Of a DNA stretch of 64,000 bases, positions 9,078-61,543 are shown piece after piece. Position numbers and translations under genes: made by a program. Location of the stretch: positions 10,664,001-10,728,000 of the forward strand of contig NC_135903.1 in NCBI RefSeq assembly GCF_964194155.1, given 5' to 3'. The first letter of the stretch is position 1. Every line of letters begins with the position of its first letter. This DNA is from Cetorhinus maximus (taxonomy: Eukaryota). The notes beneath the pieces were generated by a model. That model did no database searches. It saw nothing but the letters and a program-made list of their open reading frames with translations, and was not told the origin of the DNA.

Positions 9078-12000
9078 GTAAGTTACAATCTATTGCCCTT
9101 TTCCTCAGCGGGTACAATCTATTGCCCCTTATCCCCAGTCAGAATCCATTGCTCCATTTCTCCATTTACAATCTATTTCGTCTCTCTCCAGTCTATTTCC
9201 CCCTGCTCCAGTTACAATCTATTGTCCCATTTCCCCAGTTACAATCTATTGCCCCATTTCCCCAGTTACAATCTATTGCCCCATTTCCCCAGTTACAATC
9301 TATTGCCCCTTTCCCCATCAGTCACAATCTATTGCCCCATTTCCCCAGTTACAATCTATTGCCCCATTTCCCCAGTTACAATCTATTGCCCCATTTCCCC
9401 ATCAGTCACAATCTATTGCCCCATTTCCCCAGTTACAATCTATTGCCCCTTTCCCCATCAGTTACAATCTATTGCCCCATTTCCTCAGTTACAATCTATT
9501 GCCCCATTTCCCCAGTTACAATCTATTGCCCCATTTCCCCAGTTACAATCTATTGCCCCATTTCCCCAGTTACAATCTATTGCCCCATTTCCCCAGTTAC
9601 AATCTATTGCCCCTTTCCCACCAGTGTTGTGTGCCTGTTTTGTGAAAGGAGCTGTATAAATCTTAGTCTTTCATGAAGGGAGTTCCAATTTAAAAGACGA
9701 AGTGTGTAGTCCTGTATATTTCACACACCGGGGTGTCTTGGCACAGTATTATATACTGTTTCTATCGTGGATATTGCTGAAAGGAGAGACACGTTGCCAA
9801 AGCTGTTCCCCTTGGAATCACCAGGAAAAACACAAGCAGGCCAAATTTCAAAGGATCACAATTATACTGCAGGAGAAGAGGGTGTTGTAGTATAAATTGC
9901 GATCCTTTGAGCTTTGGCATTCTTGCATTTGTCCTGAGGAATGCAAGAGGAAAAGCTTTGGCAATATGTCTCTCTTTTCAGCAACATTCAAGTTCTGTTC
10001 TGCCAGGTGACTGTTTCTATCTTGTTAGTTGTATCAGAGATAAATATTTATTTAAAAACACAGGCAATGTTTAGTGTCACTTATAAAAATGAGCGTACTA
10101 TACCTATAAAGGATTTGGTTTTGGGGAGGAGGAGCATATTAAAGCATAGCCTGTCAGGAGGAGAGGGATTGTTGCCTTGTCAAACTAATATTAGAGGATC
10201 AGTGAATGGAGGACGTGCATCTTGCAGAGAAAATCAGCGCTGCTGGGCCTGCCTCCATGGGTAGTATTCTTCCACCCCCCACCGCCCCACACCCCGAGTA
10301 AAAAGGTGATAGGTACAAGCCCTGTTCTAGAGATTTGAGCACAAAACCTAGCTTCACATTCCAGTGCAGCACTGCCACTCAAAACAAATCCTGTGTAAAA
10401 AATCGCCAGAACTTTCCAACAAGCACCAAGATGTAGCTTGGCTGGTGGTGAGAAAGGCCCTCCCCGTCAGATCCTTCCAACATGCCAGGAGTCTCACCCC
10501 CTCTGCACATTGCCCTCGAGGTTGCTGTGGTGGGGAAGAGACCGTTGTTCACCTCCTTGTGGATTGTGCCTTTGCAAAGAAGGTCTGAAGAGAGATGCAG
10601 TGGTTTCTGTCGAGGTTCATCCCGAGCAGTTCTGTGACACAGGACTCCGTGCTCTATGGGCTGTTCCCAGGGACACACACCAAGACAAACATCAACTGCA
10701 GCTGGAGGATCATCAACTCAGTAAAAGACGCTCTTTGGTCAGCCCAAAACTTGTTGGTCTTCCAGTGCAAAGAGTTGTCCACGACCGAGTGTTGCAGACG
10801 GGCACATTCCAAGGTCCAGGACTACGTGCTGAGGGACGCACTAAAGCTTGGGGCAGCCGGCACAATGTGGAAAGGTCGCTGTCTAAGACCTTTCTGCCAT
10901 AGTGCACTGAGAGGCTGGGAACTGTTGAGAGCCCCTCGGGCTGTACAGTTCAAAATGAATGTATGCATTAAATACTAAATGTATTATAATTGTATTGAAG
11001 CACCTCAGAGTGCAACATGATGTATGTTGATAACTCCAATACCATTGCACCTCGTGATCCATGTGTAAAAGTTGAATATGATTGCACTTTTTGTGATGGC
11101 AATTTAGAAATGTTTTGTATTGTTCTTTCAGATATTTTATGAATAAAGTATATTTTATGAATTTAAAAAAATCCTGTGTATGAATATTGAAATATAACTT
11201 CTGACTTCCATTTTTTAAAATTAGAACTGTCCTTAAAAAAACAAGTGTTTGCATTTATATAGTGCCTTTCCAGCCTCAGGATATCTCGAAGGGCTTTAAA
11301 GCTAATGAAGTATTTTTGAAGTGTAGTTACTGTTGTAAAGTAGGAAAAGTGGCAGCCAGTTTGGTGCAGAGCAAGCTCCACAAATCATAACCAACATCAC
11401 AAAAACAGATTATTTGGTCAAGGGATAAATATTGTCCATGACACCAGGGATAACACTCCCCTAATGTTCTTTGAAATAGTGACAAGGGATCTTCTACGCC
11501 CACCTGAAAGGGCAGATGGGCTTCAGTTTAATCCGAAAGACAGTACCTCATACAGTGCAGCACTCCCACAGTACTGCACTGGGAGCGTAGGCCTGGATTA
11601 TTTGCTCATGTGCGGTATGGGACTTGAGGTAAATGTTATTGACTCACAAGACACCCAGGACATCTTTGTCTGCATGCACTGTTAGGATGGTTTCAGTGGC
11701 CTGGGAGATGGAGGGGGTGGTAAATCAGCCAGAGTCTTTGCTCTGTTCACAATTTGGTGATACCTGCTGAATGGTTGATGAGAACGGGACCAATCTTTGC
11801 AGTGATCAGCCTGCTCGTTCCTATGTGAATTGCCCTCCAATCCAGGGCCAGATGTAGAGTTCTGACTTGGGCATACTGAGCTACAGGAGGGTGCGAAAAA
11901 GGAACATGAGAACTAGTGATGGGGAATTGATGGAAAGGGATTTTGCAGATCACTGTAATACTGTTGTTAATTGGAACACTGTAGTACAAAGTACCATGGA

Positions 12001-15000
12001 GAGACCTTGAGGTTAAAATCTAGGCTGACACAACCAATGCAGGATTGAGGGAACATGGCACTGTCAGGGTTGTCATCTTTTGGATGAGACATTAAACCAA
12101 AGACATTCTGCCTGCACTCTTGGATCACAATGGCACTATTTTGAAGCAGAGTAGGGAAGTTAGTCTTGGTGTTATAAGTCCAATATTTGTCCCTCAACCA
12201 CCATCACAAAAAACAGTTTATCTGGTCATTATCAGATTACTGTTTGTGGCATCTTGCTATGTGCAAATTGGTTTTTGTGTTCCCTACATTCCAACACTGG
12301 CTTCATTTCAAAAGTTCTTCTTTGGCTGTGAAGTGCTTTGGGATGTCCTCAGATCGTGAAAGGTGCTATAGAAAAGCAAGTCTGCCTGTGTTTGCTTTCT
12401 TAATCTGTCAATGTTATTTTGCTGCCTAACATTTCCTAACTGGATTTGCTTTAGGCCAAATATAAAGAGCGAGGAACAGTGATGGCTGAAGATCAGCTGG
12501 TTCAGGTGAGTGGATATACTCTTAAACTCAATCAATTCATTGATCTTTTTACTGTCTGATGCTGACACTTTTAGTTTCAGCACCTTCTAGTACTGAGGGA
12601 CCAGTGGTCCTTGTGATCCAAATCTTACTGAATTTTTCTCACTGTGCAGATGTCAAAGCAGCTGGAAATGTTCAGGACACATCTGGAGGAATTTGCCAGC
12701 AAGCACAAGCAGGAGATTCGGAAAAGCTCACAGTTTCGTGTTCAGTTTCAGGACATGTGTGCAACAATTGGAGTGGACCCCCTCGCTTGTAATCCTGTTT
12801 ACTCATATCTCTCCAATTTCCTTTTGACTTCCCATCTCCCCTGATCTCAGAGTGTTTGGGTCATTCTAGAGAGAGCTTTACTCTGTATCTAACCTCGTGC
12901 TGTACCTGTCCTGGGAGTGTTTGATGGGGACAGAGTAGAGGGAGCTTTACTCTGTATCTAACCCCGTGCTGTACCTGTCCTGGGAGTGTTTGATGGGGAC
13001 AGAGTAGAGGGAGCTTTACTCTTTATCTAACCCCGTGCTGTACCTGTCCTGGGAGTGTTTGATGGGGACAGTGTAGAGGGAGCTTTACTCTGTATCTAAC
13101 CCTGTGCTGTACTTGTCCTGGGAGTGACGGGGACAATGTAGAGGGCGCTTTACTCTGTATCTAACCCCATGCTGTACCTGTCCTGGGAGTGACGGGGACA
13201 GTGTAGAGGGAGCTTTACTCTGTATCTAAGCCTGTGCTGTACCTGTCCTGGGAGTGTTTGATGGGGACGGTGTAGAGGGAGCTTTACTCTGTATCTAACC
13301 CTGTGCTGTACTTGTCCTGGGAGTGACGGGGACAATGTAGAGGGCGCTTTACTCTGTATCTAACCCCATGCTGTACCTGTCCTGGGAGTGACGGGGACAG
13401 TGTAGAGGGAGCTTTACTCTGTATCGAACCCTGTGCTGTACCTGTCCTGGGAGTGTTTAATAGGATGGTGTAGAGGGAACTTTATTCTGTATCTAAACCA
13501 ATGCTGTACCTGTTTGGAAGTGGTGATGCAATTTGGGAGGAGTTTTTAAAGAGTTCTGTTTCTCTGCATTAATGAACAAAGAAAATTCACTCAAAAATGA
13601 TGTCATATATACAAGTTTATTTTTAATTTCCTATATGCAGCTGGCAAAGGATTCTGGTCGGAGATGCTGGGCGTTGGAGACTTTTACTATGAACTGGGAG
13701 TGCAGATTATTGAAGTGTGTCTGGCTCTGAAACACAGAAACGGAGGTGAATCTCTCATTATCAGTTGTTTGTCAGTTCGGTGATTTGCTTGAGGCTGTGG
13801 CCATGAGCAGAGATATCATTGTACTTTAACCCAGGTTGAACTCTTGTTTTCTGAATGCAGCCTGTTGCAGGGTTCTAAAGTGCAGAACTTTAGTTTAAAA
13901 TGTGTGGGAATCTGTTGTGCAACTACAACTTGCATTTATATAGCGCTGTTAATGTAGTAAAGCACTTTTCTAAATCTGATACTGAGTCACATAAGGAGAT
14001 ATTGGTACAGGTGACTGAAAGCTTGGTTAAAGAGGTAGGTTCTAAGGAGTGACTTGTAGAAAGAGAGAGCTAGAAATATGGAGGGGTTTAGGGAGGAAAT
14101 TCCAGAGGTTAGGACCCAGGCGTATGAAGGTACAGCCACAGTGGTGGAGCAATGAAAATTGGAAATGCGCGCGAGGCAGATTTTGGAGGTTGGTGGGGCT
14201 GGATGTTACAGAGATAGGGAAGGGGCGAGACCATGGAGGGATTTGAACACAATGTTAAGACTTTTAAAACTGTAGCGTTGCTGGACTGGGACCTAGTAGT
14301 AGGTCAGCAAGCATGCAGGTGATGGGTGAGCGGGAGTTGGGCGAAAATGATTGGGAAAAGTTTCTCATGCTGTATCCTTAACTTTGCCAGGTCTGATCAC
14401 ACTGGATGAGCTGCACCAGCGTGTGCTCAAAGGTAGAGGCAAGTTTGCTCAAGACGTCAGTCAGTGAGTACAACTGAGAACCCTGAATGAAGTGGATTGA
14501 TTCATTGACTAAGTCTGCTCCTGCCCTCATTACCATGGGACTAACTGTTATTGTTCAGTAACCAAGATCAGCTGAGATTACATTTCAGACTCGGAGAAAT
14601 TTAGAGCACAGCAGGAAGCCATTTGGCCCATCGTATTTATACTGGTTCTTTGAAAGGTGCACTGATAGAATGTTGATAGGAGTTTGGAGCTCTCTTCAAA
14701 CGGCAATTGATTCTTGATCAGTTGATAATTTTAAATCTGAAATTGATCGATTTTTGTTAGCCAAAGGTAGTTCGGGATATCAGAAAAAGGCAGGTATATG
14801 GAGTTAGGTTGCAGATCAACCATGATCTTATGGATTGGTGGAACAGGCTTGAGGGACTAGATGGCCTCCTGTTCTGTTGTTGACATTGACTGATTTTATT
14901 AATTCTGACGCCCACCTACCCTTTGAGCAATGACTTTGGCCCAACTTCTTCCTCTCTTACCTTCCATATCCAGGGACGATCTCATTCGGGCCATAAAGAA

Positions 15001-17749
15001 ACTGAAATCCTTGGGTAATGGCTTCAGTATAATCCCAGTGGGAGGCAGGTACCTGGTGCAGTCTGTCCCTGCAGAGCTTAACATGGATCATACGGTGGTG
15101 CTGCAGATTGCTGAGGTAAGTGACGTCATTTGTTTTGTGAGGCTGCTGTTGGACTGAGAGATTATTCAGTAACAACCTGCACCTTTTCATGTAGTAAAAT
15201 GTCCCAAGGTACTTCACAGGAGCAATTGTGAAATAAAATTCAACACATAAGGAGATATTAGGACAGGTGATCAAAAGCTTGGTCAATGAGGTTAGTTTGA
15301 AGGAGTGGCTTAAAGGAGGAGAAGGAGGAAGAGACTTGGAGAGACGTAGGGAGGGAATTCCAGAGTTTAGGGCCTAGGCGGCTAAAGGTATGGCCACCTA
15401 TGGTAGAGCAACTAAAATTGGGGATGTGTAAGAAGGTACGTGTGCGAGAGAGATGCCGTGTTCAGGTTTTGTAAGGTGACCTAAGGTGACAGAGCTGTCC
15501 TTGCAACCCCCTTGTTTTTTTTTTTGCCTTCGCATCATTCACACACTTCAGATCAAGCTTGTGTGTAGGCTCCCTCCCTTATTGTTCTGGATTGGGTACT
15601 GAAGCCAAGAAAATGCATTTTAAGCACGTGATGGAGGGTATGTTTCTCCTCGAGGCCTTAATGGTAAAGAAAGATTTGCATTTATATAATGCCTTTCATG
15701 ACACTCCAAAATGCTTTTTTTTTCTTTCATGGGATGTGGGGGTGACTGACTAGGCCAGAATTTATTGCCCATCCCTAATTGCCCTTGAGGTGGTGGTGAG
15801 CTGCCTTGAACTGCTGCACCCACGTGGTGTACGTACACCTACAGTGCTGTTAGGGAGGATGTTCCAGGATTTTGACCCAGTGACAGTGAAGGAATGGTGA
15901 CCTAGTACCATGTAGGGATGGTGTGTGGCTTGGAGGGGAACTTGCAGGTGGTGGTATTCCCATGTGTCTGCTGCCCTTGCCTTTCTAGGTGGTAGAGGTC
16001 ACAGGTTTGGAAGGTGCTGTTGAAGGAGCCTTGGTGAGTTGCTGTCGTGCACCTTGTAGATGGTACACATTGCTGCCACTGTGCATCAGTGGTGGAGGAA
16101 GTGGATGTTAAAGGTGGTGTCAATCAAGCAGGCTTTTTTGTCCAGAATGGTGTTGAGCTTAGTGTTGTTGGAGCGGCACTTCTCCAGGCAAGTGGAGAGT
16201 CTTTCATCACACTCCAGACTTATGTCTTGTAGATGGTGGATAGGCTTTGGGGAGTCAGTTTAATGTTCTCATTCATAAGACAATGCCTCTGGTGCAGCAC
16301 TCCCTCAGTACTGCACTGGGAATGTCAGCTTAGATTCTTGTGCTCAAGTTTCTGAAGTGGGACTTGAACATGTGACCCTCAGACTCAGGGGAGGTGTTAC
16401 CCACTGAGCCCTTCAAACTGTACTTGATCACAGTGATGAGACAAGACAAAGGGCATGAATGAGAAACTGGGGGTAAAACTATCCTCCGTCTGTTGTTTCA
16501 CAGCATTTTTGTTATGATGTGGAGATAAATCAAACTCATCCACTTCATGTCTTACAGAAAAATGGATATGTGACAATCAGTGAAATTAAATCCAGCCTGA
16601 AGTGGGATACTGAACGCACTAACCAGGTGTTGGTACGTATATCTATACACCTGATGCAGTATTCTCTCTCTCTTAGTGTCCTATTCTGTTATGGTCAGGA
16701 TTAGACTGTCCGCTGATGCTAACCGCATTCCACCTTTCATAACCTGATAGAACGAGGGGGAATGGTATCACTGGAGTGAGCCGGAGTCACAATGTTGATT
16801 CTATTTCTCTATCAAAACGTGGATCTGCTTCTATTTGCAAAGCTGCTTTCTTTCAAATAAGAGACACTGCTAATAAAGAATGAATGGCCCATCTAAATTA
16901 ACAATGCCTGTCAGCAAGTTTAAACTACAGTTTCAAAATTCCTGCCTATAAAACATTGAATATCTCATGGTGTCCATTGGCAATGGAATGCTTCCAACAA
17001 ACTGTTGGACCTCACTTGATCATACATTGGAGTCAGTTGGAATACCATAGATTGAAACAAAGATGAAAGGGTGGAGAAATCTTCCCTTGTGATCTTGGTC
17101 CACAGTGATTAGTCAAAATAGCCACTTTCAATATGGATGATAAATATGAAGCATGTCAATAAAAGCACTGGTCATTATACTTTGTACGGACTTGGATCTG
17201 TAGGAAAACTTCAGTACAATACCTTCCTTTAGTTCTTGGTTAAAAGTTGCTGTTCACGTTCAACACTTTCATATTTTAGATTCTTCATGACTTTTCCACC
17301 TTAGCAAGTTACCTAGAATTATTGTATTTAAAGCACAATCACAGGTCCATGCCAGTATTCATGCTCCCACCCTACTTTATCTCACGCCATCAACATATCC
17401 TTTCTCCCTCATGATTAACTAGTTTCCCATCCATGCTTGTCACCTCAAACACTCCTTATAGTGTTGAGTTCCATTATCTCACCACTCTCAAAAGTAGTTT
17501 TATTTTAATTACAGCTTGGGAGAATGGGAAATTAGCTGATTCCCATGAATAAATAGTCAATAAGTTAATTGAGAACTGTGTCCTAAACCTTAGAGTTATA
17601 ACCTCTTTCAGGAACATTTGTTGAAGGAAGGCTTGGCGTGGATTGACAAACAAGCTCCTGAAGAGCCTCAGTACTGGTTGCCTGCACTCTTCTCTGATCT
17701 ATACTCCCAAGATGTCACTCCAGAAGAAGCTGATGAAAGTTTGCCGTGA
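9024..17749 (+). CDS. SNF8: SNF8 / EAP30 / VPS22, ESCRT-II subunit; 8 coding exons, 777 nt, 258 aa
   Basis: Exons 9024-9077, 12455-12505, 12650-12788, 13641-13745, 14391-14463, 14974-15115, 16558-16632 and 17612-17749 join in frame: [25 protein letters not shown]...[25 protein letters not shown]. Confidence 0.98.
9081..9620. repeat. 27-bp minisatellite at the start of SNF8 intron 1
   Basis: Unit AGTTACAATCTATTGCCCCATTTCCCC, ~19 copies, with occasional ATC-insertion variants. Confidence 0.95.
10398..11168 (+). mobile_element. 5'-truncated Tx1/L1-clade retrotransposon with 12-bp TSD
   Basis: C-terminal zinc-binding region [29 protein letters not shown]..., AATAAA and A-tail. AAATCCTGTGTA at 10386-10397 and 11169-11180. 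Confidence 0.85.
12455..12505 (+). CDS. SNF8: SNF8 coding exon 2
   Basis: ctttag| [17 protein letters not shown] |gtgagt. Confidence 0.97.
12650..12788 (+). CDS. SNF8: SNF8 coding exon 3
   Basis: gtgcag| [46 protein letters not shown]+T |gtaatc. Confidence 0.95.
12872..13515. repeat. 65/69-bp tandem repeat in SNF8 intron 3
   Basis: Unit GGAGCTTTACTCTGTATCTAACCCCGTGCTGTACCTGTCCTGGGAGTGTTTGATGGGGACAGTGTAGAG, ~9.5 copies. Confidence 0.95.
13641..13745 (+). CDS. SNF8: SNF8 coding exon 4
   Basis: atgcag| (S)[34 protein letters not shown]+G |gtgaat. Confidence 0.97.
14391..14463 (+). CDS. SNF8: SNF8 coding exon 5
   Basis: tgccag| (G)[23 protein letters not shown]+CA |gtgagt. Confidence 0.97.
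14974..15115 (+). CDS. SNF8: SNF8 coding exon 6
   Basis: atccag| (Q)[47 protein letters not shown] |gtaagt. Confidence 0.97.
15720..16258 (-). mobile_element. 3' fragment of a CR1/L2-group LINE in SNF8 intron 6
   Basis: Same 3' sequence as the 48055-50190 and 54300-55340 copies. Confidence 0.82.
16558..16632 (+). CDS. SNF8: SNF8 coding exon 7
   Basis: ttacag| [25 protein letters not shown] |gtacgt. Confidence 0.96.
17612..17749 (+). CDS. SNF8: SNF8 coding exon 8 (stop)
   Basis: tttcag| [48 protein letters not shown]. Confidence 0.97.
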   Translation, partial: EHLLKEGLAWIDKQAPEEPQYWLPALFSDLYSQDVTPEEADESLP

Positions 17750-18443: not shown

Positions 18444-21400
18444 CAGTTTCCAGCAGCGCACACATCATTTCCCTGTGATTCATTAACAGCAGCTTGCTGA
18501 AATCTAGCTCTTATGATTGAATCCAAATGCAGATCAATACTGACCGAGGATCGAGTTTTTTTCCTTTCCTTCTGCTAATCAGGATGGCCCTATGCCCTGA
18601 AGCAGTTGGCAATCATATAACTGGCTTTTGATCACTCAAAGTGTCATTCTAAACAGTTGAACTAACCGAGTTAGGTCACCCTCTGAATATCTCCTTCCTG
18701 CCTCCAGGGCAGTTCGTGACTTGACTTAGTCTCTTCCGTCGTCACAAACTACCCAGTGTAGTGGTTCATTGTGCAAACTGCAAACCAACAGCTGCTAGAA
18801 ACTAAGCTTTGCTTATATGTTGCTGTCAGGGGAGGGAACAGGCAGCTTGCGATTCCAAGCCTCAATTTTAAAATTCTCGCTCAAATCGCTCCATAGTGTC
18901 ATCTCGCTCTATCTGTGGGCTTTACTGGGGGAGGGGGAAATTAAAATCAGCCAGGATTCCTTCTGCTAAGCATTATTCCATGATTCATGCTGAATTTGCA
19001 TGTGTGCCAAATGAAGACAGGACATTCCTCTCAGCTGAATAGTCTGTGTGACACTTGCCAGCTCGTCTCCACTACCACTTGCTGGTGTTATTAACTGAAG
19101 AGAAATCGGAGCAGAAAAAATCTCTAATAGGGCAATCTCTTAAATCTCCTCTGCGCCCTCTCCAGGTTAATAGAAGTATACAAGAGTTTTGATAAAGTAA
19201 ATAGGAGGGTTAGATTTAAGGTAATGGCGAAAGAATTGGGGGGGTGGGGAAGAAAATGAGAAGTTCATTTACACAATAAGTTGTTACAATCTAAAATGCA
19301 CTGCTGGAAAAGTGGGGTGGAAACAGATTCAATAATAACTTTCAGAAGGGAATTTGGATAAATACTTAAAAGAAATCCTTGCAGAGCTACAGGAAAGAAC
19401 AGGGGGAATTGGATAGCTCTTTCAAAGAGCTGGCACAGGCACAGGCACGATTGGCCAAATGGCTCTCTTCTGTGCTGGGATGTAAGCTTGTTGCTTTAAA
19501 CAACCAATAACCGCGACAAACCCATTGGCCCCTCTCTGGTGATGCATTATAAACAGAATGAAGCAAAGTATGAGAATCATGCAATTTAGTAAATTTTCCG
19601 TCATCAGCAAATTTTATTGCACCAAAAATTTGAATTGTCACTTATATACAATATAAACATCAGTGCTTTTTCCTAGTTTGCATATTAGTTGTTAACCACG
19701 ATTAGACAGTCTTTAACCAGCTGCATCTGTTAAATTGGTGTCGTAGCCCAGTCTAACCAACATTACTGCATTGGCAAATTCACTGGTGCTTTACCTTCCC
19801 CTCCCTGTTACCTTGAATGAAGTACCAGCTCAATAACGTGTGTATAACCCACAGTGAGTAAACCAGTAGGAAAATTACACCCAGCACCCACTTCAGGGGT
19901 GCCACGACAAGCTGGTGAATGAATTACCACCAACCAAGTATGGGAGTTCTTCACGAGAAGAGGGGAGACAAGTAGAGACAAACTACCACAGCAATGCATC
20001 TGGTACTTAAAATACCCAGACACTCTCCAGTGCCCATCTGGCCCAGGTGGTTTATTTTATAAGGCATCATAACAGTGAGGTGTAGGTAACATGAGAAACC
20101 ATGGTAATAAAAAAAACGTTTAAAATCTAAAGGAGCTGTGCTTTATATAAAACTCGTCCTCAGGTGATATTGTCTTTTCCTCACTGCTGAAGTGCAGCTC
20201 ACAGACACTAGTGGCCTATTCAGGACCTCCTGCAAATAGCCATTGCTCACTGCTTAAGCTTCTGCAGTAACTGTTGGCAGTGTGTTTGGCCAAGGGCATA
20301 GTGAGTCACTGGTGGCAAAGTGCTTCTTTTTGCCTGACGCACAAGCACTTTTCCAACAGGTGCCATAGTGTGTGTCTGGGGATGGCAAGGCTGGCTGAGT
20401 ACTGAGGCCAATTGCTAGCAACTCCACTCAAACTAGGGGATGAATCAGAGAATATCTTGCTCTAGATGGTCCAGTAACACTCCACATTCACCCATCCAAG
20501 ATTACACCAGATATCAAATGTTGGATAATATTACAATTCAGTCCCTGCAACTGAGTTTAACAGAAAAGAAGTGAAAGGTAACATTAACGCAGAGAAGGAA
20601 TTGGAGGGGGGGAATCAAAGTACACCAGTGGAAGGCTGTGAATACTGTCCCGGGGGAAAGGGGGGGGGGAAAAAACCCTTGGAAAATCTGACCGAAATTA
20701 ATTTCATGTCCATCCTGGTTCATAGAGTCATAGAGGTCTACAGCATAGAAAAAGGCCCATCGAGTCTGTGCCGGTCAAACAAGTACCTAGCATGTTGTGA
20801 AAGGAACTCTGGTTACTAAGCATTTAAAAGAGGAGCCTCCCTTTTAAGCAAGAAACATTTCTTACATTAACTATATCTCGTAGCTCCATACACATAGCAC
20901 TCCCTTGACATGGTGCTTTAAGCAGCTTTAACTCTGATTATACTCCATCATCTCCAGCCTTGGGAACTCCCCTTTGTGGCTGTCAAAGGGTCACAGGTGG
21001 TGACTATTTGCTGTCTTGCCTGGTATGGGAATCGGAAACAGTTGTGTGCCACAGTTTAAGGTGAGGCCCTAAACTGAAACAAACTTCTGTCACCAGCAAC
21101 CATATTGAATGCATCACTCAATTAAACAGAACAAGCAGCAGCAGCAGGGATGACTGAAATACAAAATGTGTCTCCTGGGTGAATTTTGGCAATTCAATAA
21201 TAGTTTTAAAAAGGAGGCACAGCATGCTATAAGCACTCGATTAAATCCCAACCAGTATTTCAACATTACCCTGATGAATACACCATAGGCCAATGCTTTG
21301 GCGTTGAATTTTTCAACTTTCTCTTCCACCCCAACCCCCATCTTTCACATTCTACTGGAGATCATGTTCCAAGCCCATTAATGCAATGTTGGTTATTCTG

Positions 21401-21506
21401 TTTGGAGATGTTACATTTTTGTAGCAGACAAAACTCATACAAGCCTTTTAGTTACAAATATAACTTACCTATCCTGGATGTTAACAGAGCTACTCCCTTC
21501 AATATG

Positions 21507-21522
21507 TTTATTGTACAATAAA
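21507..21522. terminator. Palindromic bidirectional poly(A) signal, candidate UBE2Z 3' end
   Basis: TTTATTGTACAATAAA is its own reverse complement and gives TGTA-C-AATAAA on both strands. Confidence 0.45.
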
Positions 21523-24500
21523 ATTCCAGTTTGACAAACTACAGCTCAATCCTCAAATGACCAGAATTCCATGCGACTAGTCAAACACTATGTTAATTTG
21601 TAACTGACCAATCATATTAAAATATATCTGTTGAAAGCATTTGTTCCATTCTAGTGACAGGATTGAGTCGAGAGGACACTTGCTTTAATACATAGTTGGT
21701 TTCTGGTCAGAAGGACAAACCTGCTTGAAAGCAGAAAGAAATGCAGCACCAGTTCTGGATTGAAGTCAGTAACTGCACTGATCGGTCAACCGTTCTGGGT
21801 GCAGTGAAACATTTCCATTGCAAATGAGATTTAACTGTGAAAGGGGTTCTGCTTTTTGTAACGAGCTAGGATTTGAATATGTGCAGCGTAAACTAGGCTA
21901 TGAACTGAAAGTGGTATCACATCCCTGCCTTCCTTTATTGGACTATTGTTCTGTTTTGTTATGCATTTGGTAGGAGCCTGAATGGTAACAGTACATTATG
22001 ACATAGATTATAAAATACACACAAACTGCAATGCAGGTCTTCGGATCTCTTTTGTGATGTGATTTTGCAGCAAAATAGTGGGTACAGGATCCCTGGCCAA
22101 CATTCTAACAGAAATCACAAGGCTGCTACAGTGTTCTGAAATTCATTATGACTGGAAACATTAACCATGTGGATCTTAACACTCAACCAGAAAGTGATTT
22201 GTTGTTCTATGTATATCAAACCTTCACACAAGTCTTTGCCATTAATTGGAGTGTACTGCTTAACATGAGAAGGACAACAGGAATGATCATCTCACTGGAT
22301 ATCATCTTCGATGTGGTTTAATTTTAGGGAATTTAGAAATATTTTACCAGACAAAGGTATTTCCACAAAACAATCCCCCATCTAACTTTACCCTCTCCCC
22401 CCACCCCCGAATTCCCCATCTTTCCTGAAAGTACCAAACTCTTGCCAGGCATGTTTGCCAAGCAGCTGAGGGTCTATTGGTACCTTGTCCAAGATGCCAT
22501 TCTTAATAGGCAAATTGCAGGCTGCTTGACTGTGCCTCATCACACCTTAACCTGACCGAAACTCAACAAACGTGCACTTTCCAGCAGTGTTTCTGAACAC
22601 TGATCAGGAACAGGAACAGTGGCTGGATTGTTTCCTACATCCCTCACCCATGGATGCTGAGGTGAATGATAACAGCCCAAATGTTGCTACAGCCCAATGA
22701 CTTGGACCTTGGTGAGCTCTGGTCTGTGTGGCTTAGTTCCACAGTGGCAGGCATATTTACAAACTCAACTGGACAGGAGAGCTCATCAAACCATTTTAGG
22801 TTAATTGGAGACATCAGTTAGAGAGAAAAAAAATTGAGATGTAAAGTCTCTATGTCAAGTTTCAAATCATCTGCCTCAAACTTTAGACAAATCAGGATTC
22901 TTTTCCTTTATTACCCAAGGACGTTATACATTTATGGGTTTCTGGAGGCCTGTAGAACATAATAAATACTTTGTATTATTTTGAGAAAAAAGTTCAGGAT
23001 GACTGTCCATTAAGCAGTACACTCCAATTAATGGCTGCAGTTCAGTGTAATACTGCCTCCTGGGTAAACCTCAAAGGATTCATATCACATTCATTATGAC
23101 CAAGTGGTCCTTGGTGCTAAACATAGAAATTGTCTTCATTTTGGTCCGCCTGAAATGGTAATCGTGGTTGGGCGTCCAGGGACAAGCCCGATCTGTATGA
23201 TGCCATATGGTAACTGATATTCTTCAATTAGAACCAACCAACAGGGCTGACTCATTTTCTGCTGCGATCAGTCATAACACCCTAAGCCCCATTGCCCCAC
23301 TCACCATGGACCACCCAACCACCCGATCAATATTAAAGGCGACAAATCTCAGAAAACCACTGACTCCTAAACAGTTCCAAGCCCCTCACTCGAACTAGGT
23401 GCATGGCACCGTAACCAGCCACAGTTCACAGGATAAACAGCAATAGTTTAGCACACTACCATCATGTAGAGATTTGCAGTGGCTGCACTCCAGCCAATAT
23501 TTGGGGTGTTTGGGGATAATAAGTCATTGTAGATTTTAACCATAACAGTAGGGCATCAAATATCGCTGGGAGCAGTTCCACTCTTGTCTGCCTCTTGCAA
23601 CTTTTCCACGTGCAATTCCTAGTTAAACACTCCTGTTTCATTTGTCTGGGGCACTGTAGCTGTATCCAATCCATGTGCTCACGTGACGCTCATGTTCTGT
23701 AGGAGTCAAGGGCATTGATCTAGGATTGGAACTGCTGCCCTGCTGTTTGCAATTCCCAGGCATGGGGTGTTGAGAACAACTGTAGCACCGAGATCAGCTC
23801 AATCAACACCAGCCGGGGACCGTCCCAGTACTGTGCCACACACAGTATGGCCGGTGGAGTGACTATAAGTTGCAAACACCTGCAAGAGTAATTTTGCAGT
23901 AAGCTCCCAGCAATGTTGTCACAAATACTTCCCAGTAGCATACTGTGCTGAGATTTAACTTTAAAGAAGCTCTGTTGGTCACTTTTGCAGAGTGATCATA
24001 AGAAGTGAAGAGGTGGCTTATAATATCAACGTACAGATCAGGAGCTAAACACCCAGCACTAAATCATACTCTCCGTTCTGCCCCATGACCTGAGGTTTCT
24101 TTGCAGCTAACTGTACTGAAATATTGAAACTAAATGTTTATCTGATTCCATGAAAGTGAATCAAATGCTTAGATTAGTTACAGACAGGAAAACTTTATGG
24201 TTTGTCTCTTTGCAGTTTAACTTACACCAGCACAAACCACAGTGCATAGAATTGTACAATCATTCCTGTTTTCACATGGCTTGTGAGTGAATGGTGGAAT
24301 CACTTTTCAACATGGCAACAAATGGGTTAATCATTATTAACAGAATCTGGCATTATAAAGCAGCAAATTATTTAGAGAAGGCTAACTATCCCATTGCTCT
24401 AACTTATGTAACAATGGGTTAGATATTTTTAGTTAATGACAATAATATGATTAAGGTGGCTCCAGAAATGGGAATAAGGAGTAATAGTTATTTAAAGCAT

Positions 24501-27469
24501 AAAAGAACATGAGATTTTAAGCTATTATTGCTCCTTAGTCAATGGTTTGGGTTGAATCATTTGAAAATTCATTTTAGATTACTTGACTGACTGTAATATT
24601 GGGAATTAGATTATCAGTTGTGAGAATTGAGAGCTGCTTTACTCCTGACATGTTCTGAGCAGCTGAAGAAACAAAAGCAGTGTCTTTTTTCCTGAGGTTC
24701 AAATATGCTATTGTCTCCAACAGTGTACTTCAGCTGAAAGGCGCAGGTCTAGTAACATGGAGGGGAAGGTGTTAGCTGCAGTGAGCTGTCCCTGAACTCG
24801 CTTTAAATTGGATCAATGGAAACAAAGTGATGGGGTGAACAACTCTCAGCTGTACTTCTTGTGATATTGTGCAGCCACATGGGTGTACAAGCTTCTCAAA
24901 CTCTGGACCTGCAGTGTGGCCCTCTGACAGTGTTTGATGGGGAAAAGTCTGGTCTCCAAAAGACTCATTGCAGTCTGGTTAACTAGTCACTTAAGTACCC
25001 TGGACCTCGTCACTTTGCACACGTAAAATCTTGGCACCAAAATGCTTCTTTAAACATTGTATGACTGTGGAATACAGCAATGGTTGCCGTGTTTCAGGAG
25101 TGATATAAAGTGTGGCATCATAGCACTGGGACATCAGGTACAATGCTCCAGGTATTCTATATTTCTAGTGACTAGTTCACAGGACCAAGACCAGAGGAAC
25201 TGGGAGCAAGGCTTGGGAGACTCCCTTGTAATGATAGAGGACACAGGAACTCTCATTACTTCCAAAAGAGGGTGGGCATATGTTTCATTGATGTCAGTGA
25301 CCCCACCACTTTCTGAACTTTTCACCTAATAAACCCAGTAATGCACCTGTTCTGGTCTGACAAAAATTATTCCCATCAACAAACCTTGGTTGAACTTTTC
25401 GCCTTTCAGTCAGACACTCACAAGCAAAATCGGGTTTGTCCTGCCAGGAGTCATGAATGGGAGACATACAGAAATTATAAAATAAAAAATGTACTCAGTT
25501 TAAAAAACCTACTCTGCTTTGTAAAGGAAGGAAGTCAGTGGGAGTGGGGGTGGGGGTGGTGTGGGGAGAATGAAATCGTTACGAGCAGTGCTGAGAATTA
25601 TTCGATTGGGTGTGACAATTATTTATGGTGACGTCAGGTTTGTCCAAATAGAAACTAGAACCTCATTTTAAAAGTTTCCTGTGTTTGCAGACATAAGTTT
25701 ATAGTTGTTTGATAGTACAGAGCCTGAGCATTGCTGAAAAAAGACATGTCCTTTTTTCAGCAATACGTAAGTTTATATCATTCACCCAACTAGTAAATCC
25801 TGAATGGACAACAGTGAGTCAAACAGGTTAGAAAGACGCTGACTGGGTCAGACTGAGATGATAAAATTATAGCTTTGCAGTCTCTTTTCTTGGACTCTAT
25901 TTGAACCTGCATTTGAGAGAATGAGGGGGTAACACTGGAAACTCAGGGAATTGGTTGGGGTTGAGGGGGTCCAATCTCATTGGTATAGTACGTAGGCCAA
26001 ACTATATGAAAAAAGATTTATATTTACCTCAAGATTTAAGTCACTTAAACAAAATTGAACAACACATTGCTGAACCAGGACTGCATTTGTTATGACCACA
26101 AATCATCCCCAAATCTGACCTAGAGAGATGTGAAAGGAGGTCATCTACCTATAGATACACAATGTAGGACTTTGAGACAACTGGCCAATAGGATGTTTTA
26201 GCAGATTTTTCTAAAACAGTAATCTAAATTGCTCCTGGTTGATTTTTTATCATGGTTTCCACTTAATTCTCCACAGCCCTTCTCCTCATACAAGCCTGCT
26301 ATTAAACATGGATAACAGATCATAAAATTACCAGCCCACATACAACCTGTGTGATTAGAACACAGACTGAGATAAATTCATCTAGATTTGCCAATGTGTG
26401 GAATAAAGATGTCAAACTGCACTGAATGTCACATCAAGTCTCTCTCAATTGGGTGATCGGTTATATACTACAGCAGACATCTCCCTTTAAATAATATGCA
26501 TGATTGGGAAGCCCAATAAAACACATTATGATAAATCAGAGTCGTTTTTCCTTTAAAGTTTGTACTCTGCCAGGAGAGGGGACCATAAACACAAACTATA
26601 CAGTACCATAAGTCAGTGAGGGGTGTGTTTTGAGAGTTTTATAGAAATCCTCCATTAAAGAGAAACACGAATAATGCAGGTTTTATCCAAGTGAGTTAAA
26701 TGTGAGGAGCTATTGTTCATTACGGGAACATTTAAACTTTTACAATCAAATGTCATTAATGTGGACGCTTATAAAAAGCAACCTTTAGTAAACAATTTTT
26801 CTTTCAAGTTGTATCACTTGCTGTGCATTTAACAAAAGAGTGTTGGACTGTGTTAGCAAGATCAAAGGGTCTTTTAAAACAGGTACATGTGCTCATTTGC
26901 AACAGATCTGACAACATACTCAAGAAAAGTTTTCTTTGGAGTAAATTAATTCTGTAGCTTTTGAGGTTAACATTTAAACACAGTTGACAGAAACCAGCCT
27001 CAGGGCACTCCTCTACACGGTGCTGTTGCAAGATGACTAAACTTGTAACCTGTGAATACTTGGACGTTTCTCACGTGTATCTCAGTATAAAAAAACTCAA
27101 TTGTCCACACTGTCTCTTACAGGTGGTTATACTGATGTGGATGAGGCACAAGGCTAAATCTTGTGGGGTACACTGGACATTACAGAGCAACACTTTACAG
27201 TGAAACCAGTGCCCTGCAAAAAAGAGTATGGATTGGAGAGCTAAAATATTTTTTAAAATTATAATCATGTGATTCTTACCCAAGCCAATTCTCTCCTTTC
27301 TACCATTACAAAGCGAAAGCTGAGTAAAACAGGCTGCCCTCAAAGATGCCAGATCTTTGGTCTATGTACAAAACCATGCGAGAGGACTCGCTCCTGGACA
27401 CCTGAGCTTCAGCTCAGCTTCCCTTGGATCCTCACCATCACAGACATGGCCTGCCCCAGTGTTCGTATT

Positions 27470-27640
27470 CTAGGGGTGGGTAGTGCCTTGACTGTCTTGC
27501 TCAGTTCCTGAAGAGCTGCTGTCAGAGTCTGGCTCCATTGCTTCCTCTTCATTTTTCTTTTTCAATCGCTGCCTTATGGCCTGCAGGCGATTCAGTAAGG
27601 TCTGGTAATCAAAATGACCTCGCCTCTCCCCAAAAGGATC
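27470..27640 (-). CDS. UBE2Z: UBE2Z coding exon 7 (stop)
   Basis: tcacag| [59 protein letters not shown]. Confidence 0.97.
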
Positions 27641-30600
27641 CTGTGAAAGGAACAAAAACGTGCTCATGCATTTTACAGTGAATTTTTAAAAACAAATACC
27701 ATCTAATACATTGAACAAAAAGTGCCCCTGACATTTTCTTTTCTCTTTAACAATATACATCTCAATTTGAAACCACACCAGAAAAGACAGTTCTATTAAA
27801 CCAAAACAGAATTTGACTAGTTTCAGCTTTCAGTGGTTTTATGCTCCTGATCCATATAAACACAATTGTTTAGTTTTATTGATGCGTTTTACAAGCACTC
27901 AAGCGATAATCACTGTAAAAAAAACACACACACACAATTACTGACTGTTGTTAACATTTCAAAGTAAAAAGGTCGGAATGGGCAGAACAGTGCGTGTGAG
28001 CTGGGACATGGGACAGGAGGACATTGAGGAGCTAGGAAGATGGGGGCGAGAATGCCTTAAGGATTTGCAAACAAAGGCAAGGATTTGAATGTTTTGGGGA
28101 ATGTAATTTCAAAAGAGGACCGAGGTAGCTGCTGAGAAGGAGTAAACAAGCAAAAATCTACAGGACTGCTAGAACTAAACAAACAGAGGAAAAGCTGGAA
28201 TTACACAGGTACAGTCTGTTTGTGGAGAGATGCCTCCACAAGTGCTGCCCAACTTGTTGGTATTTCCAGTATTTGTTGTTTTTGTGGTGGTACAGGAGCA
28301 GCTATGGACAGTGGTGTTTTGAATGATTTGTAGGTTCTTCAGAGCCAGTGAGAAGAACATTGGCAAATTTGAGGCTGAAGATAATGAAGGGGTTTTGGTG
28401 ACAAAGGGGTTTGGATGGAGGTGGGTGTCATTACCTGTGGTGGAGGAAAATGGCGTTCTTTGGAATGGATAAGATATGGGGATCTAAAGCACAGGTCAAA
28501 CAGGACATGGAGATCATGTTGGTTTCAGAGTCAATCAGCAGCCAGTAACAGAGATGGAATTGGGGAAATGGGATGCAGTTTCCAGCAGAACTCAAACAGA
28601 ATGGCTTTTATTAACCTTGTTAATGTTAAGCAGCAGATAACACTGCTTTGCCCAAAATTTCAAGGTGAACAAGCAATCAGACAGCAGAATAACAGATTTA
28701 GGTGTCAGGGAAGTGAATCTGGTGTTGTCAGTGGGCATATAGAAGCTGACCCTCTGCTTTTGAAAAGATTGCAAACGAATGGCATGCAGATGTGGAATGG
28801 AAGAGGACCAAGGAAGGAACCTTGGGGTATTCTAAATGAAGAAGCAGCCATTAGGAGTATCCATCATAGGAGACACATTGGCTACCCTAGGACAGGTAAG
28901 ATGGTGGTGTTGGAGGATGGAGTAGTTGATCATATCCAAAGTCACAGAATGGTCAAGGAGGGATAATGCATTGCAGTCTCCCTGACAAAAGGAAGCAGCT
29001 GCTGACTTTCACCATAGCTATGTGAGCTGTGGCTCAATTGGTAGCACTCTTGCCTCTGAATCACAAAGTTCCATGTTCAAGTTCCACTCCAGGGCTTGAG
29101 TAGAAAAATATCAAGGCTGACACTCCAGGTAGTACTTGAGGGAGTGCTGCACTGTCAGAGCTGCCGTCCTTCAGATAAGGTGTTATGCTGAGGCCTCGTC
29201 TATCTGTTCAGGAGGATGTAAAAGATCCCATGGCACTATTTCAAGAAGGAGCAGGGGAGCTATTCCACAGTGTCCTGGATAATATTTATCCCTCAATCAA
29301 TATCACAAAAATAGATTATATGGTCATCATCACTTTGCTGTTTGTGGGAATTTGTGTACAAATTGGCTGCTGCATTTCCTGCACTGCAACAGTGGCTACA
29401 CTTCAAAAAGTACTTAATTGGCTATAAAGTGCTTTGAGACATCCAATATTCATGAAAGGCACAATACAAATGCATGTCTTTTTTATAATGATTTTTGTGC
29501 CATAAGCAAGACAGAAATCAGAGTGGCGGATTTTGAACAGGCAGCAATGTGAGACGAGCACAAAGCTGGGTGATGATACATATTCACAAGGAAAGGGTTA
29601 AGACAGTTGTCTTGAAATCTGCTGTTATACTGCTATTGATCTCATTATATTGTAGTGATGTGACCATCTGAGGAAGTATGAATTAATTTAGATGCAGTGA
29701 CCACCAAACCGATGAATTCTGACTGAGAAGCAATGGTCAGTTTAAACAATAAACCTAATTCAAAGACATTCCAGTAATTAGTTGGTAAGTTCTGAAGGGA
29801 TGACATTAACCTTTTCAAAAGCAGGAGGTTGATGCACAGGAAGAGGCAGAAAAGGCTCCTTTGTTAGGAAGGCCTAAAGATAAGAACCTGCCTGAGAAAG
29901 TTAAGTAGTGTAAAGAAGCCGAGGAGTTGTTCCGGACTATGGAAAAAGAGTTTGTTAAAACTCTTCCCCTTATCTTCTGTCTTGTTTGTTCTTCGAGGCG
30001 AAGTTGACCATATTAATCATCTGGGATGTTTGGTAGGGTTTCAATGGGTACATAGATGACTGTTAAGGCTGATCTGCGCCTGAAAGGTCATGTTGCAAAT
30101 AGGCCAAAATTGCATTTTGGGCATGCTGCTGGTTTGGGATTTCTTCTCCAAGCTACCAATAAGGGACAAGAGGCTAAATTGCATTAGGTAACGCAGAAAT
30201 GTGTGGTTTGTTACACCAAAGGATTAGAAAATAAAAGTACAAAAAAATTGGGTGTTAGAACAGATATTCAAGAATTTGAAGGGCTGACCAACCACGTACA
30301 GGTAGTTCAGAACTGGAACGTGAGAAAGTTTTGTCGCAAGTGCAAAATTAAGTGCTTGTTTAATTGTTGTCAATTATTACTGCACAATTAATAGATCTGT
30401 GAACATCTAACATATAATACTGCGAACCCTATTGTTTTGAGCAGTAAATTTTAAGTAAACATACTCCTTATCTATTAATCTTAGAAGGTGATAAGAATTA
30501 GGAATGGGGCAGTTAAAGTTTGGCTTGTTATAAAAGTTAGGGGCTGATGGAAGTCTTAAAGGGGCAGCAGGAATGATTTACATGGAAAGGGAGCTATTTA

Positions 30601-36600: not shown

Positions 36601-39600
36601 ATGTGAAGGGCTGACTGTTGCTCTGTGCTTGTGAAATTGTATAGCTTCAACATCAGGGTCTCTTCATATGTGATCCAGGTTCCTGACACATTTCTTAGAA
36701 ATTTCAAAAAGCTATTTGCAAATATGAGACAAAATAAGGGATGGTTTAAGATGGGGGAGGAGGAGGGTTGGGGTGGGGGAATGTGAATCCCTTAATTGAT
36801 TTTTGTCTTTGGATTTAGCCCCAAATTTACTCAGTAGTTTACAGGCCAGGCCTGTTATTTACCCACAGCCCATTATTTTATATGCATGATCCACTCTTAG
36901 CTGTGATTTAATCTGTGCATACCCAAGTATGCTGAGGCACACTTTGCCATTCCGGTAGAAGTTTGGGTTAAACCGCACAGTGCTGTTTCCAGTTGTCATG
37001 AGCTTGACTCTCGGTGGGTGGATAGGATAGTCAGGAGGGCAGCGAAAGAGAAAAAGAAAAAAGCCTCCTTCATAAGGCGTGTCGAAAGGTCCTGTAATTA
37101 GTGCGTGAATCTGCAGGGAAAAGAAAAAGAACAGCAGTCCCAGTAAAGTAAATGCCCAGTAAAGTCTGCAGGGGGAAAGTTTCGAGTGTAAAATGGTGGA
37201 ATACATTAAACTGGTACCAAAACACTTTCTTATTGCATCCAATAGAGCATTACAATTACCACTACATCAACATCTCCCCATTATGGAAATGCTACTGGAC
37301 TAGTAATCCAGAGGCTCAGGCGAATGCTCTGGGGACACGGGTTCAAATCCCATCACAGCAGCTGGTGGAATTTAAATTCAATTAATTAATTACTCTGGAA
37401 TTGAAAGCTAGTCTGAGTAATGGTGCTCACGAAATTATCAATTGTTGCAAAAACCCATTTGGTTCACTAATTTTTAAAAATTCATTAACGGGGTGTGGAC
37501 GTCACTGGCTAGGCCAGCATTTATTGCCCATCCCTAATTGCCCTTGAGGAGGTGGTGGTGAGCTGCCTTCTTGAACCGCTGTAGTCCCTGTGGTGTAGGT
37601 ATACCCACAGTGCAGTTAGGGAGGGAGTTCCAGCATTTTGACCCAGCGACAGTGAAGGAACGGCGATATATTTCCAAGTCAGGATGGTGAGTGACTTGGA
37701 GGGGAACTTCCTGGTGGTGGTGTTCCATGTATCTGCTGCCCTTTTCCTTCTAGATGCAAGTGGCTCTCTAGAGAAGGAAATCTGCCATCCTTGCCTGGTC
37801 TGACCCACAGCAGACTCCAGACCCACAGCAATGTGACTCTTAACTGCCATCTGAAATGACCTAGCAAGCCACTCAGTTCAACAGCAATTAGTGATGAGCA
37901 ACAAATGCTGGCCTTGCCAGCGACGCCCACATCACCTGAAAGAATAAAGAAACAAAATCTTGATCTTCATCCTCCCTGTGCACTTTACAACTAATTGGAA
38001 GGAGCATCCTAAGGTAAAGTTGGAAATTTCCAGGTTCAATTCCTACCATGTACTGAGTAAGCTGATCTCAGTTAGGGAAGAATAAGACCCGTTTCAGGGC
38101 TACTGGGTTAGAGGTGGGGGAGACAGGGCGGGTGGTGCTGGCTATCAGCTGGAATTCCAGATCTAATTCATATTTGTCTGATCATTTTCTTGCTGGGGGC
38201 ATTGTAGTGGAGTACAGTTTATGCACATTCCTGCAAGGGGTTCAGTGGACCACTGCGGCAAGAGCCCTGGCTAATTTCCTCATCCCTGACAAGTCTCCCT
38301 GCCTTCCGAACCCAGGAATCCCACAGCCAATTGCAACACAACTACCACCCTGGTATTTACCCATTAGGCCAGTACATATCAATGATTTCTGGGTTTGTAA
38401 GTTTGAGTACCACACGAAGCAGTATGTACAAATCAACCCTTCAGGGCAGCTGCAGTAAATTTCATTCCCTAAACACAATCTGGCTGATGTTTCTCTTTAT
38501 AACATTGTGTTGTAATGATGTAAAAAAAAATCTTCCAAATGCACACTTCCTGTGAACTTTTACCACTGTAAATTCACATGTCCACTTTTGTAATACAAAA
38601 GGTGTATGTAAACTTCTTACACTCTAAGTGAAGTGCAATCCACTTCCTGTGCTGTAATGTCACTGAAAGAAGGGTGCGATTATCTGGTAATACGTTCACA
38701 CAAGCAGCTTCCATTATAAATATTGTTCCAGAAATTTGTAATGGAATATAGAAAAATCTGACTGTAAAATGGGGAGTGAATTACATCTGCACACATGATC
38801 TGCTACCTTCAAACTTTGTTTCGCCTGATCACCACACTATTCCACGATTCAGTGCATGCAACACCACAGACATTGTGTAGCTTTAATTTTATCTATACAT
38901 ATGGAATCATAGAATGATACAGCACATAAGGCCATTCGGCCCATCATGCCTGTGCCAGCACTTTGAAAGAGTTATCCAATTAGACCTATTCATGTGCCCT
39001 TTCCCCAAAGCTTTGCAAATTTTGCCTTTTCAAGTATTTATCCAATTCCCTTCAGAAAGTTACTACTGAATCTGCCCTTTCAGATAATGCATTCCAGATC
39101 GTAACAACTCACTACTTAAAATATTCTAATATTATCTCTGGTTTTTGCCAATTAATTTAAAATAAATATATACTGGAGTAATGAATCCAAAGCTTTAATA
39201 TTGTTCAGATAATGCTGGAAACACTCAGCATTGGTTAATGCTTCAATTTCTGATGTAAGATTACAAAACTAAAACATTAACTTTATTTCTCTTCACAGAT
39301 GCTGCCTGACGGGCTGAGTACTTCCAGCATTTTCTGTTCATATTTCAGGTTTCCATCATCTGCAGTTATTTTGTCTTTTAACGTTCTAGCTGTTTGGATG
39401 CTACATTAAATACTGCACCGTGCACCAGGTAACACATCTCCATCGCACCTTAGTCATATCTTGCGGGTCTGGGACAACAAACATCCCTGGTGGTGGTTCT
39501 TTGTAAATAGACATGATATCCCTGCAGCACAAAATAAAGCAAAATATTAAAACATATTGAATGTTAAATTTGCAAAAGAATGGAAGAAAATGACAACCCG

Positions 39601-47447: not shown

Positions 47448-47932
47448 CAACAGCGCCACCCGCCGGTAACTCCGGGAATCACACCCCGCAAACATCGCCG
47501 CCAGCTGGTAACTCCGGGAATCACATCCCGCAAACATCGCCGCCAGCTGGTAACTCCGGGAATCACACCCCCGCAAACATCGCCGCCAGCTGGTAACTCC
47601 GGGAATCACACCCCCGCAAACATCGCCGCCAGCTGGTAACTCCGGGAATCACACCCCCGCAAACATCGCCGCCAGCTGGTAACTCCGGGAATCACACCCC
47701 GCAAACATCGCCGCCAGCTGGTAACTCCGGGAATCACACCCCACAAACATCGCCGCCTGCGGGTAAATCCGAGAATCACACCCCCGCATATAGCGCCACC
47801 CGCCCGATTACTCCCGGAATCACACGCCCACAAACAGTGCCGCCAGCTGGCTACTTCGGGAATCACATGCATCAAACATCGCCACCCGCAGGTAGCTCCG
47901 GGAATTACATCCCGCAAACAGCGCCAACTCCT
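47448..47932. repeat. 42-43-bp CpG-rich VNTR in the UBE2Z promoter
   Basis: Unit GGTAACTCCGGGAATCACACCCCGCAAACATCGCCGCCAGCT at 47465, 47507, 47549, 47592, 47635, 47678 and 47720, then diverged copies to ~47930. Confidence 0.95.
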
Positions 47933-61360: not shown

Positions 61361-61543
61361 TACAAGCAAAATACTGCGGATGCTGGAAATCTGAAACAAA
61401 AACAAAAACAGCAGGAAAAACTCAGCAGGTCTGACAGCATCTGTGGAGAGGAACACAGCTAATGGACTCGAAACGTTAACTGTGTTCCTCTCTGCAGATG
61501 CTGTCAGACCTGCTGAGTTTTTCCAGCTATTTTTGTTTGTGTT
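61361..61543. mobile_element. Fold-back (inverted-repeat) Penelope-terminus-like element with 13-bp TSD
   Basis: GGAAAAACTCAGCAGGTCTGACAGCATCTG pairs with CAGATGCTGTCAGACCTGCTGAGTTTTTCC. TSD AGTAAYACAGGGA at 61348 and 61544. Confidence 0.85.

Follow-up and report, generated by a model that had tools for sequence, protein, structure and literature searches.

A perfect 26-bp inverted repeat between the convergent genes SNF8 and UBE2Z, probably an old one-step inverted duplication without function

Template switching is reported to create perfect stems in a single step (PMC8794818). In apes, the lengths copied by such events have a median of 12 nt and a maximum of 128 nt (Walker et al. 2021, PMC7954356). 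Inverted templated insertions of at least 25 bp occur and segregate in the human germline according to Osia et al. 2021 (PMC8421209), a survey in which templates were searched only within 100 bp. According to Ranz et al. 2007 (PMC1885836), staggered breaks can leave non-repetitive sequence duplicated in inverted orientation. Chen et al. 2017 (PMC5398296) report that non-repetitive inverted duplicates form a very large class in vertebrates and that a small fraction of this class is expressed. On the RNA side, STAU1 is described as preferring long-range, bulge-free, AU-rich duplexes in 3′ UTRs (PMC10164587).

The inverted repeat described here, found in organism A and in its relatives B, C, and D, takes on properties of several of these systems. 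As in the template-switch (MMBIR) insertions of Walker et al. and Osia et al., a short, perfect, and sharp-ended reverse-complement copy of nearby unique sequence is present. Its 26 nt fall within the ape range (PMC7954356), whereas the template would lie ~750 nt away, further than the 100-bp range that Osia et al. covered (PMC8421209). With the staggered-break inversions of Ranz et al. (PMC1885836) it shares a segment that is flanked by inverted copies of non-repetitive sequence, but it is far smaller than the gene-containing cases treated there, and no inversion is seen relative to B, C, and D. The vertebrate class of Chen et al. (PMC5398296) likewise comprises arms of at least 10 nt in non-repetitive DNA, with spacers not exceeding 1 kb. 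The pair here is longer and more perfect than that loose threshold requires, and the density reported for the class cannot serve as a base rate for it. With the STAU1-bound duplexes (PMC10164587) it has in common a bulge-free, AU-leaning stem, a span above 100 nt, and a position in the 3′ region of a gene. The difference is that the present pair is known from sequence and predicted folding, and UBE2Z is absent from the main text of that report. No publication on the structure of this locus was found in the literature, nor was either of two 14-nt pieces of the arm; the repeat is of a kind that is common among vertebrates, and is probably neutral.

The window, which is the whole 64,000-nt stretch of DNA that was analysed, contains the repeat and its immediate surroundings as follows.

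Left arm, 22238-22263, + strand: 38% GC; the inner edge ends in TTAA; organism B has A>G at 22262.
Right arm, 23010-23035, - strand: exact reverse complement of the left arm; organism B has C>T at 23015.
Interior, 22264-23009, no strand assigned: 746 nt that do not themselves end in inverted repeats; oriented alike in B, C, and D.
12-bp direct repeat, first copy, 22141-22152, + strand: second copy at 23089-23100; judged incidental.

The two arms are complementary at 26/26 positions across the 746-nt spacer, exactly as the original prediction had described them, and they constitute the longest of the 87 inverted pairs in 17-28 kb. Their pairing is purely Watson-Crick, without a G-U pair in organism A. 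The analytic chance expectation for a pair of this kind, loops being limited to 1 kb, is 2e-8 per window, or ~1e-3 per 3 Gb, which places the observed pair far beyond chance. The arm sequence was said to occur nowhere else in the window, and this holds: only two matches are found at three or fewer mismatches, the next-best ungapped match has nine, and two arm matches were reproduced in 0 of 100 shuffles. Outside the window, the first 20 nt of the arm had no exact match in metagenome or viral contigs, and the last UBE2Z exon gave 598 pattern matches but no confirmed locus in metagenome contigs; genomes of this type are not expected in such collections, and these blanks are uninformative. Similarity breaks off abruptly at both ends of the arms. 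Fifteen exact inverted repeats of at least 20 nt were tested in total. In 13 of them the arms are present at 3-7 copies in the window, so that these repeats belong to dispersed families. Two arm copies are found only for the 26-bp pair and for 51037-51060, and the latter adjoins other multi-copy pieces. The 26-bp pair is therefore unusual among the tested inverted repeats in that it consists of unique sequence.

The 12-bp direct repeat had been thought to bracket the pair. Both of its copies exist, but they are placed asymmetrically (the first ends 85 nt before the left arm, the second begins 53 nt beyond the right one), and direct similarity between the two 200-nt flanks scores 139 against a null mean of 138.6. 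As a meaningful bracket the repeat was rejected, being at chance level. The identity of the heavily decayed repeat that had been seen in the interior (~22380-22790) was not confirmed. An alignment of 22376-22800 with the similar-looking 18751-19150 scores 159, where the shuffled maximum is 179, and only the fragment 22582-22626 matches other loci, in three short records of a DNA run from organism C.

The inverted repeat is located midway between two convergent genes, SNF8 (+) and UBE2Z (-), ~4.4-4.5 kb from each stop.

SNF8 earlier exons, 12650-12787 and 14975-15115, + strand: Pfam EAP30 matches.
SNF8 last coding exon, 17612-17749, + strand: stop at 17747-17749; the left arm follows 4489 nt downstream; alone without Pfam match.
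Palindrome of 16 nt, 21507-21522, no strand assigned: AATAAA on both strands; candidate shared or bidirectional poly(A) signal of the convergent genes.
UBE2Z presumed last coding exon, 27470-27640, - strand: stop TAG at 27470-27472, ~4435 nt from the right arm; alone without Pfam match.
UBE2Z upstream frame, 36862-37266, - strand: Pfam UQ_con match.

The EAP30-family gene is taken here to be SNF8, and the ubiquitin-conjugating enzyme gene is presumed to be UBE2Z, a name adopted from the original prediction. The repeat had been assigned to the UBE2Z 3′ UTR. This placement is plausible, but the similar distance to both stops leaves it unproven, and no transcript end was observed; the repeat could fall in the 3′ tail of SNF8, of UBE2Z, of both, or of neither. 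If UBE2Z ends at the palindrome at 21507-21522, the assignment is right. Candidate poly(A) sites are 18438, 20106, and 21517 on the + strand and 21507, 20051, and 19613 on the - strand. Organism B differs just outside the palindrome, at 21523. The contigs of the relatives run through 21507-21522 without a poly(A) loose end or a coverage stop and continue to 21384, where they break; the repeat branch at that point has a loose end that matches nothing in the window. Strand skews and the counts of TGTA and ATTTA give no strand call. No Rfam family reaches the gathering threshold in the window, and the four sub-threshold matches in 21000-24000 (E 0.95-4.4) all lie off the arms. Separately, 21234-21435 is a repeat of low copy number. 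Near-identical paralogues occur in the DNA run of C, where matches to other loci cover 21300-21426, and in the transcriptome-sized assemblies of B, C, and D, and at 21435 the same branch into sequence absent from the window is seen in the assemblies of all three relatives.

A run search with 21000-27650 listed 24 runs from organism A and the relatives B, C, and D, 20 of which contain the stretch or part of it; most of the listed runs contain about a third of the query words. Four of the 24 were compared over 21300-23400, namely X5 (B), X6 (C, DNA), X15 (C), and X18 (D). X5, X15, and X18 are assemblies of 77-155 Mb with unstranded contigs, compared to 2.9-5.5 Gb for A and C. They look like transcriptomes, which is a guess from assembly size for X5 and from automatic labelling for X15 and X18; none of the three is on record as RNA. 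Both arms are covered in contigs of B, C, and D, and the interior has the same orientation throughout, without joints. In X6, of which ~48% was read, no contig covers the arms or most of the interior, not even its own orthologous copy, and this blank carries no information on copy number. In X15, both arms lie colinearly on a single contig of 4216 nt, which extends ~2.2 kb towards UBE2Z. The arms of B and C are free of indels (all gap letters lie outside them), as is the left arm of D, and the D contig that holds the right arm has one unplaced 1-nt gap. Divergence from A over the region amounts to ~2% in B and to 2.9% and 3.1% in C and D, respectively. Because the arms and the colinear interior recur in B, C, and D, the repeat is neither an assembly artefact nor a recent inversion, and it predates the split of the four organisms. 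An inversion in lineage A is ruled out by the same colinearity, with which an older inversion is compatible. Transcription of the region, on which the original prediction depended, is suggested by its coverage in the transcriptome-sized, putative RNA assemblies of the three relatives.

The comparison of substitutions covers 40 of the 41 differences in organism B and 40 of the 97 in C and D; one difference in B, at 21369, was left out of the rate, as it lies on another contig. Among the differences listed in B, an A>G at 22262 and a C>T at 23015 fall within the arms. At these positions, the two arm places visible in C and D, both relatives agree with the window, and the changes are thus derived in B; 22262 A>G is possibly RNA editing instead of a derived allele. 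B shows 24 lineage-specific changes in 1916 nt, 22 of them outside the arms in 1864 nt. The two substitutions in 52 nt of arm compare to 0.61 expected at the flank rate, and at least two are found with P = 0.13 under neutrality, two substitutions having little power. The arms of B hence change at least as fast as their flanks, with no sign of constraint at this low power. The partner of 23015, at 22258, is unchanged in B (all six G>A differences are listed and none is at 22258). The partner of 22262, at 23011, shows no change among the 40 of 41 differences listed in B, and the remaining one is, by subtraction, a T>C. That it is located at 23011 and compensates 22262 is judged unlikely, considering that differences further right on the same contig and at the same depth are listed. 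The change at 23015 is certainly uncompensated and the one at 22262 probably so; among the differences listed, compensation is visible for 0/2.

The two strands respond differently to these changes in predicted folding. On the UBE2Z strand both become A-C mismatches, by which the duplex goes from -43.2 to -35.0 kcal/mol, a cost of 8.2 kcal/mol, while the mean helix probability drops from 0.99 to 0.77 and the inner six pairs are lost. On the SNF8 (+) strand both become G-U pairs, with -41.2 compared to -43.2 kcal/mol and a helix probability that stays at 0.98. Given the spectrum of changes in B, two wobbles are expected by chance with a probability of ~0.12 on the + strand and ~0.31 on either same strand, and the pattern is a weak hint only. 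A neutral perfect 52-nt repeat survives a branch of 0.6-2.3% with a probability of 0.73-0.30. With ~3% divergence to C and D, the presence of the repeat in four species therefore needs no selection. As a separate matter, lineage-specific transitions in 21384-23376 lean from AT to GC in B (14 vs 6) and in A (5 vs 2), possibly a sign of GC-biased gene conversion.

The explanation that is considered moderately probable is an orphan inverted duplication, which would have been generated by one DNA-level event, a template switch or a staggered-break inversion, in the common ancestor of A-D and which would now be neutral. The wobble-free and sharply bounded match in unique DNA fits a single copying event. 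In the template-switch route, a polymerase would switch template at a microhomology during replication or break repair, copy 26 nt backwards from a site several hundred nucleotides distant, and then return, leaving a templated inverted insertion. In the other route, staggered breaks would invert the 746-nt segment, and fill-in would duplicate the 26-nt overhang at both ends. Neutral evolution would have followed, and decay has begun in B. The pair is probably transcribed together with one of the convergent genes, as part of its long 3′ tail, and in that case the arms would pair. A template-switch or inversion scar had been named in the original prediction as the alternative to a selected duplex, and it is the scar that fits better. 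All three relatives show only the state after the event, both arms with a colinear interior, which makes the event older than their split from A. The rather unlikely counterpart is that a repeat of the same copying origin was kept by selection as a duplex in a long 3′ extension of either gene, SNF8 (+) or UBE2Z (-), where it might compact the UTR or recruit dsRNA-binding proteins (Staufen, ADAR) and thereby alter stability or poly(A) choice. Such a role is consistent with both arms sharing one colinear contig of X15 and being covered in X5 and X18 (putative RNA), with the indel-free arms of B and C and left arm of D, with the G-U pairs that both B changes form on the + strand, and with the duplex preference of STAU1 (PMC10164587). 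The capacity to form a helix, which had been presupposed, is borne out in silico, as the predicted helix dominates the ensemble on both strands (mean pair probability 0.98 and 0.99). Against selection stand the rate of change in the arms of B, which is at least that of the flanks and without visible compensation among the differences listed, and the fold of the whole 921-nt region, which is no better than that of shuffles (z = -1.16). Long-selected RNA stems usually carry some G-U pairs, of which the arms of organism A have none. A selected duplex on the UBE2Z strand, as first proposed, fares worst, with two arm substitutions against 0.61 expected, none of them visibly compensated and both breaking the pairing on that strand. 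If a functional duplex exists, the changes in B speak for the SNF8 strand rather than the UBE2Z strand. It is quite improbable that the product of the copying accident was later recruited as an RNA switch acting over long range between the convergent genes, with the arms paired in an extended SNF8 (+) transcript. The pairing would then tolerate the G-U changes of B, loop out 746 nt, and mask a site at 23019-23026 that is complementary to nt 1-8 of miR-122. The A>G at 22262, which sits at the end of the stem in a UAA context, could be A-to-I editing, and the mirror duplex would form in an overlapping UBE2Z transcript.

Two further readings derive the arms from the ends of a mobile element or from the halves of a palindrome. 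It is improbable that the arms are remains of the inverted termini of a rare DNA transposon, or of a Ginger- or LTR-like element with foreign interior DNA. The locus does share with MITEs and other TIR DNA transposons a body of ~0.8 kb bounded by terminal inverted repeats, and its total length of 798 nt is MITE-like. The outer 7-9 nt would have to be trimmed to yield a formal duplication (TA, TTAA, or 6 bp with TG...CA) that is centred in a 12-bp palindromic empty site. A scan of trimmed ends does find formal duplications at trims of 7, 8, 9, and 10 nt, including a 6-bp one with TG...CA ends, but any self-palindromic word within an inverted repeat yields such a duplication, and a palindromic target is needed in addition. 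In contrast to MITEs, no target-site duplication lies flush with the outer arm ends, where no direct repeat of at least 4 nt was found with a slack of up to 5 nt. No other copy is present in the window, neither of the arms in 64 kb, even at eight mismatches, nor of the interior (best E 1.3). Perfect ends around an old-looking interior would also be unlikely (P 0.006 at 10% divergence), and to our knowledge the arms carry no recognisable transposon superfamily terminus. The earlier statements that a target-site duplication is missing and that the repeat is not an obvious young MITE are thus upheld. An origin from a perfect 48-bp palindrome (22-nt arms and a central TTAA) that was cut at its loop, with the interior inserted and TTAA duplicated, is very improbable. 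It would account for the TTAA at the inner edge of both arms; TTAA is self-complementary, however, and this follows from any inverted repeat that ends in TTAA. The interior, moreover, is carried by all three relatives and has no terminal repeats.

A neutral one-step inverted duplication would be an ordinary relic of DNA repair and would illustrate that slowly evolving genomes can share perfect repeats across species without selection. A mutation rate of 7e-10 per generation is reported for the epaulette shark (PMC10587355). Judging by its repeats, organism A gives the impression of a cartilaginous fish. If the organisms compared here are sharks with low mutation rates, the repeat would be old in years yet young in substitutions. 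If the duplex is functional, it would offer a datable long-range 3′ UTR structure that was born in one mutation, and a clean disrupt-and-rescue test.

Several smaller features accompany the locus. An 8-mer complementary to nt 1-8 of miR-122 (sequence taken from PMC6317650) lies inside the arms, at 23019-23026 (+) and 22247-22254 (-); it was rejected as a special site, since nine such 8-mers occur in the window. At 22137-22139, organism A is without 31 nt that are common to B, C, and D, and the deletion has a 3-nt TGA microhomology. A perfect 30-nt inverted repeat with its arms 51 nt apart (61414-61443 and 61495-61524) belongs to a multi-copy repeat with five copies in the window and is a hairpin-shaped, retroelement-like copy. 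Minisatellites with periods of 27, 69, and 42 nt are found at 9081-9619, 12867-13513, and 47449-47925, respectively. The first two are located inside the SNF8 gene span, the one at 9081-9619 directly after the first coding stretch.
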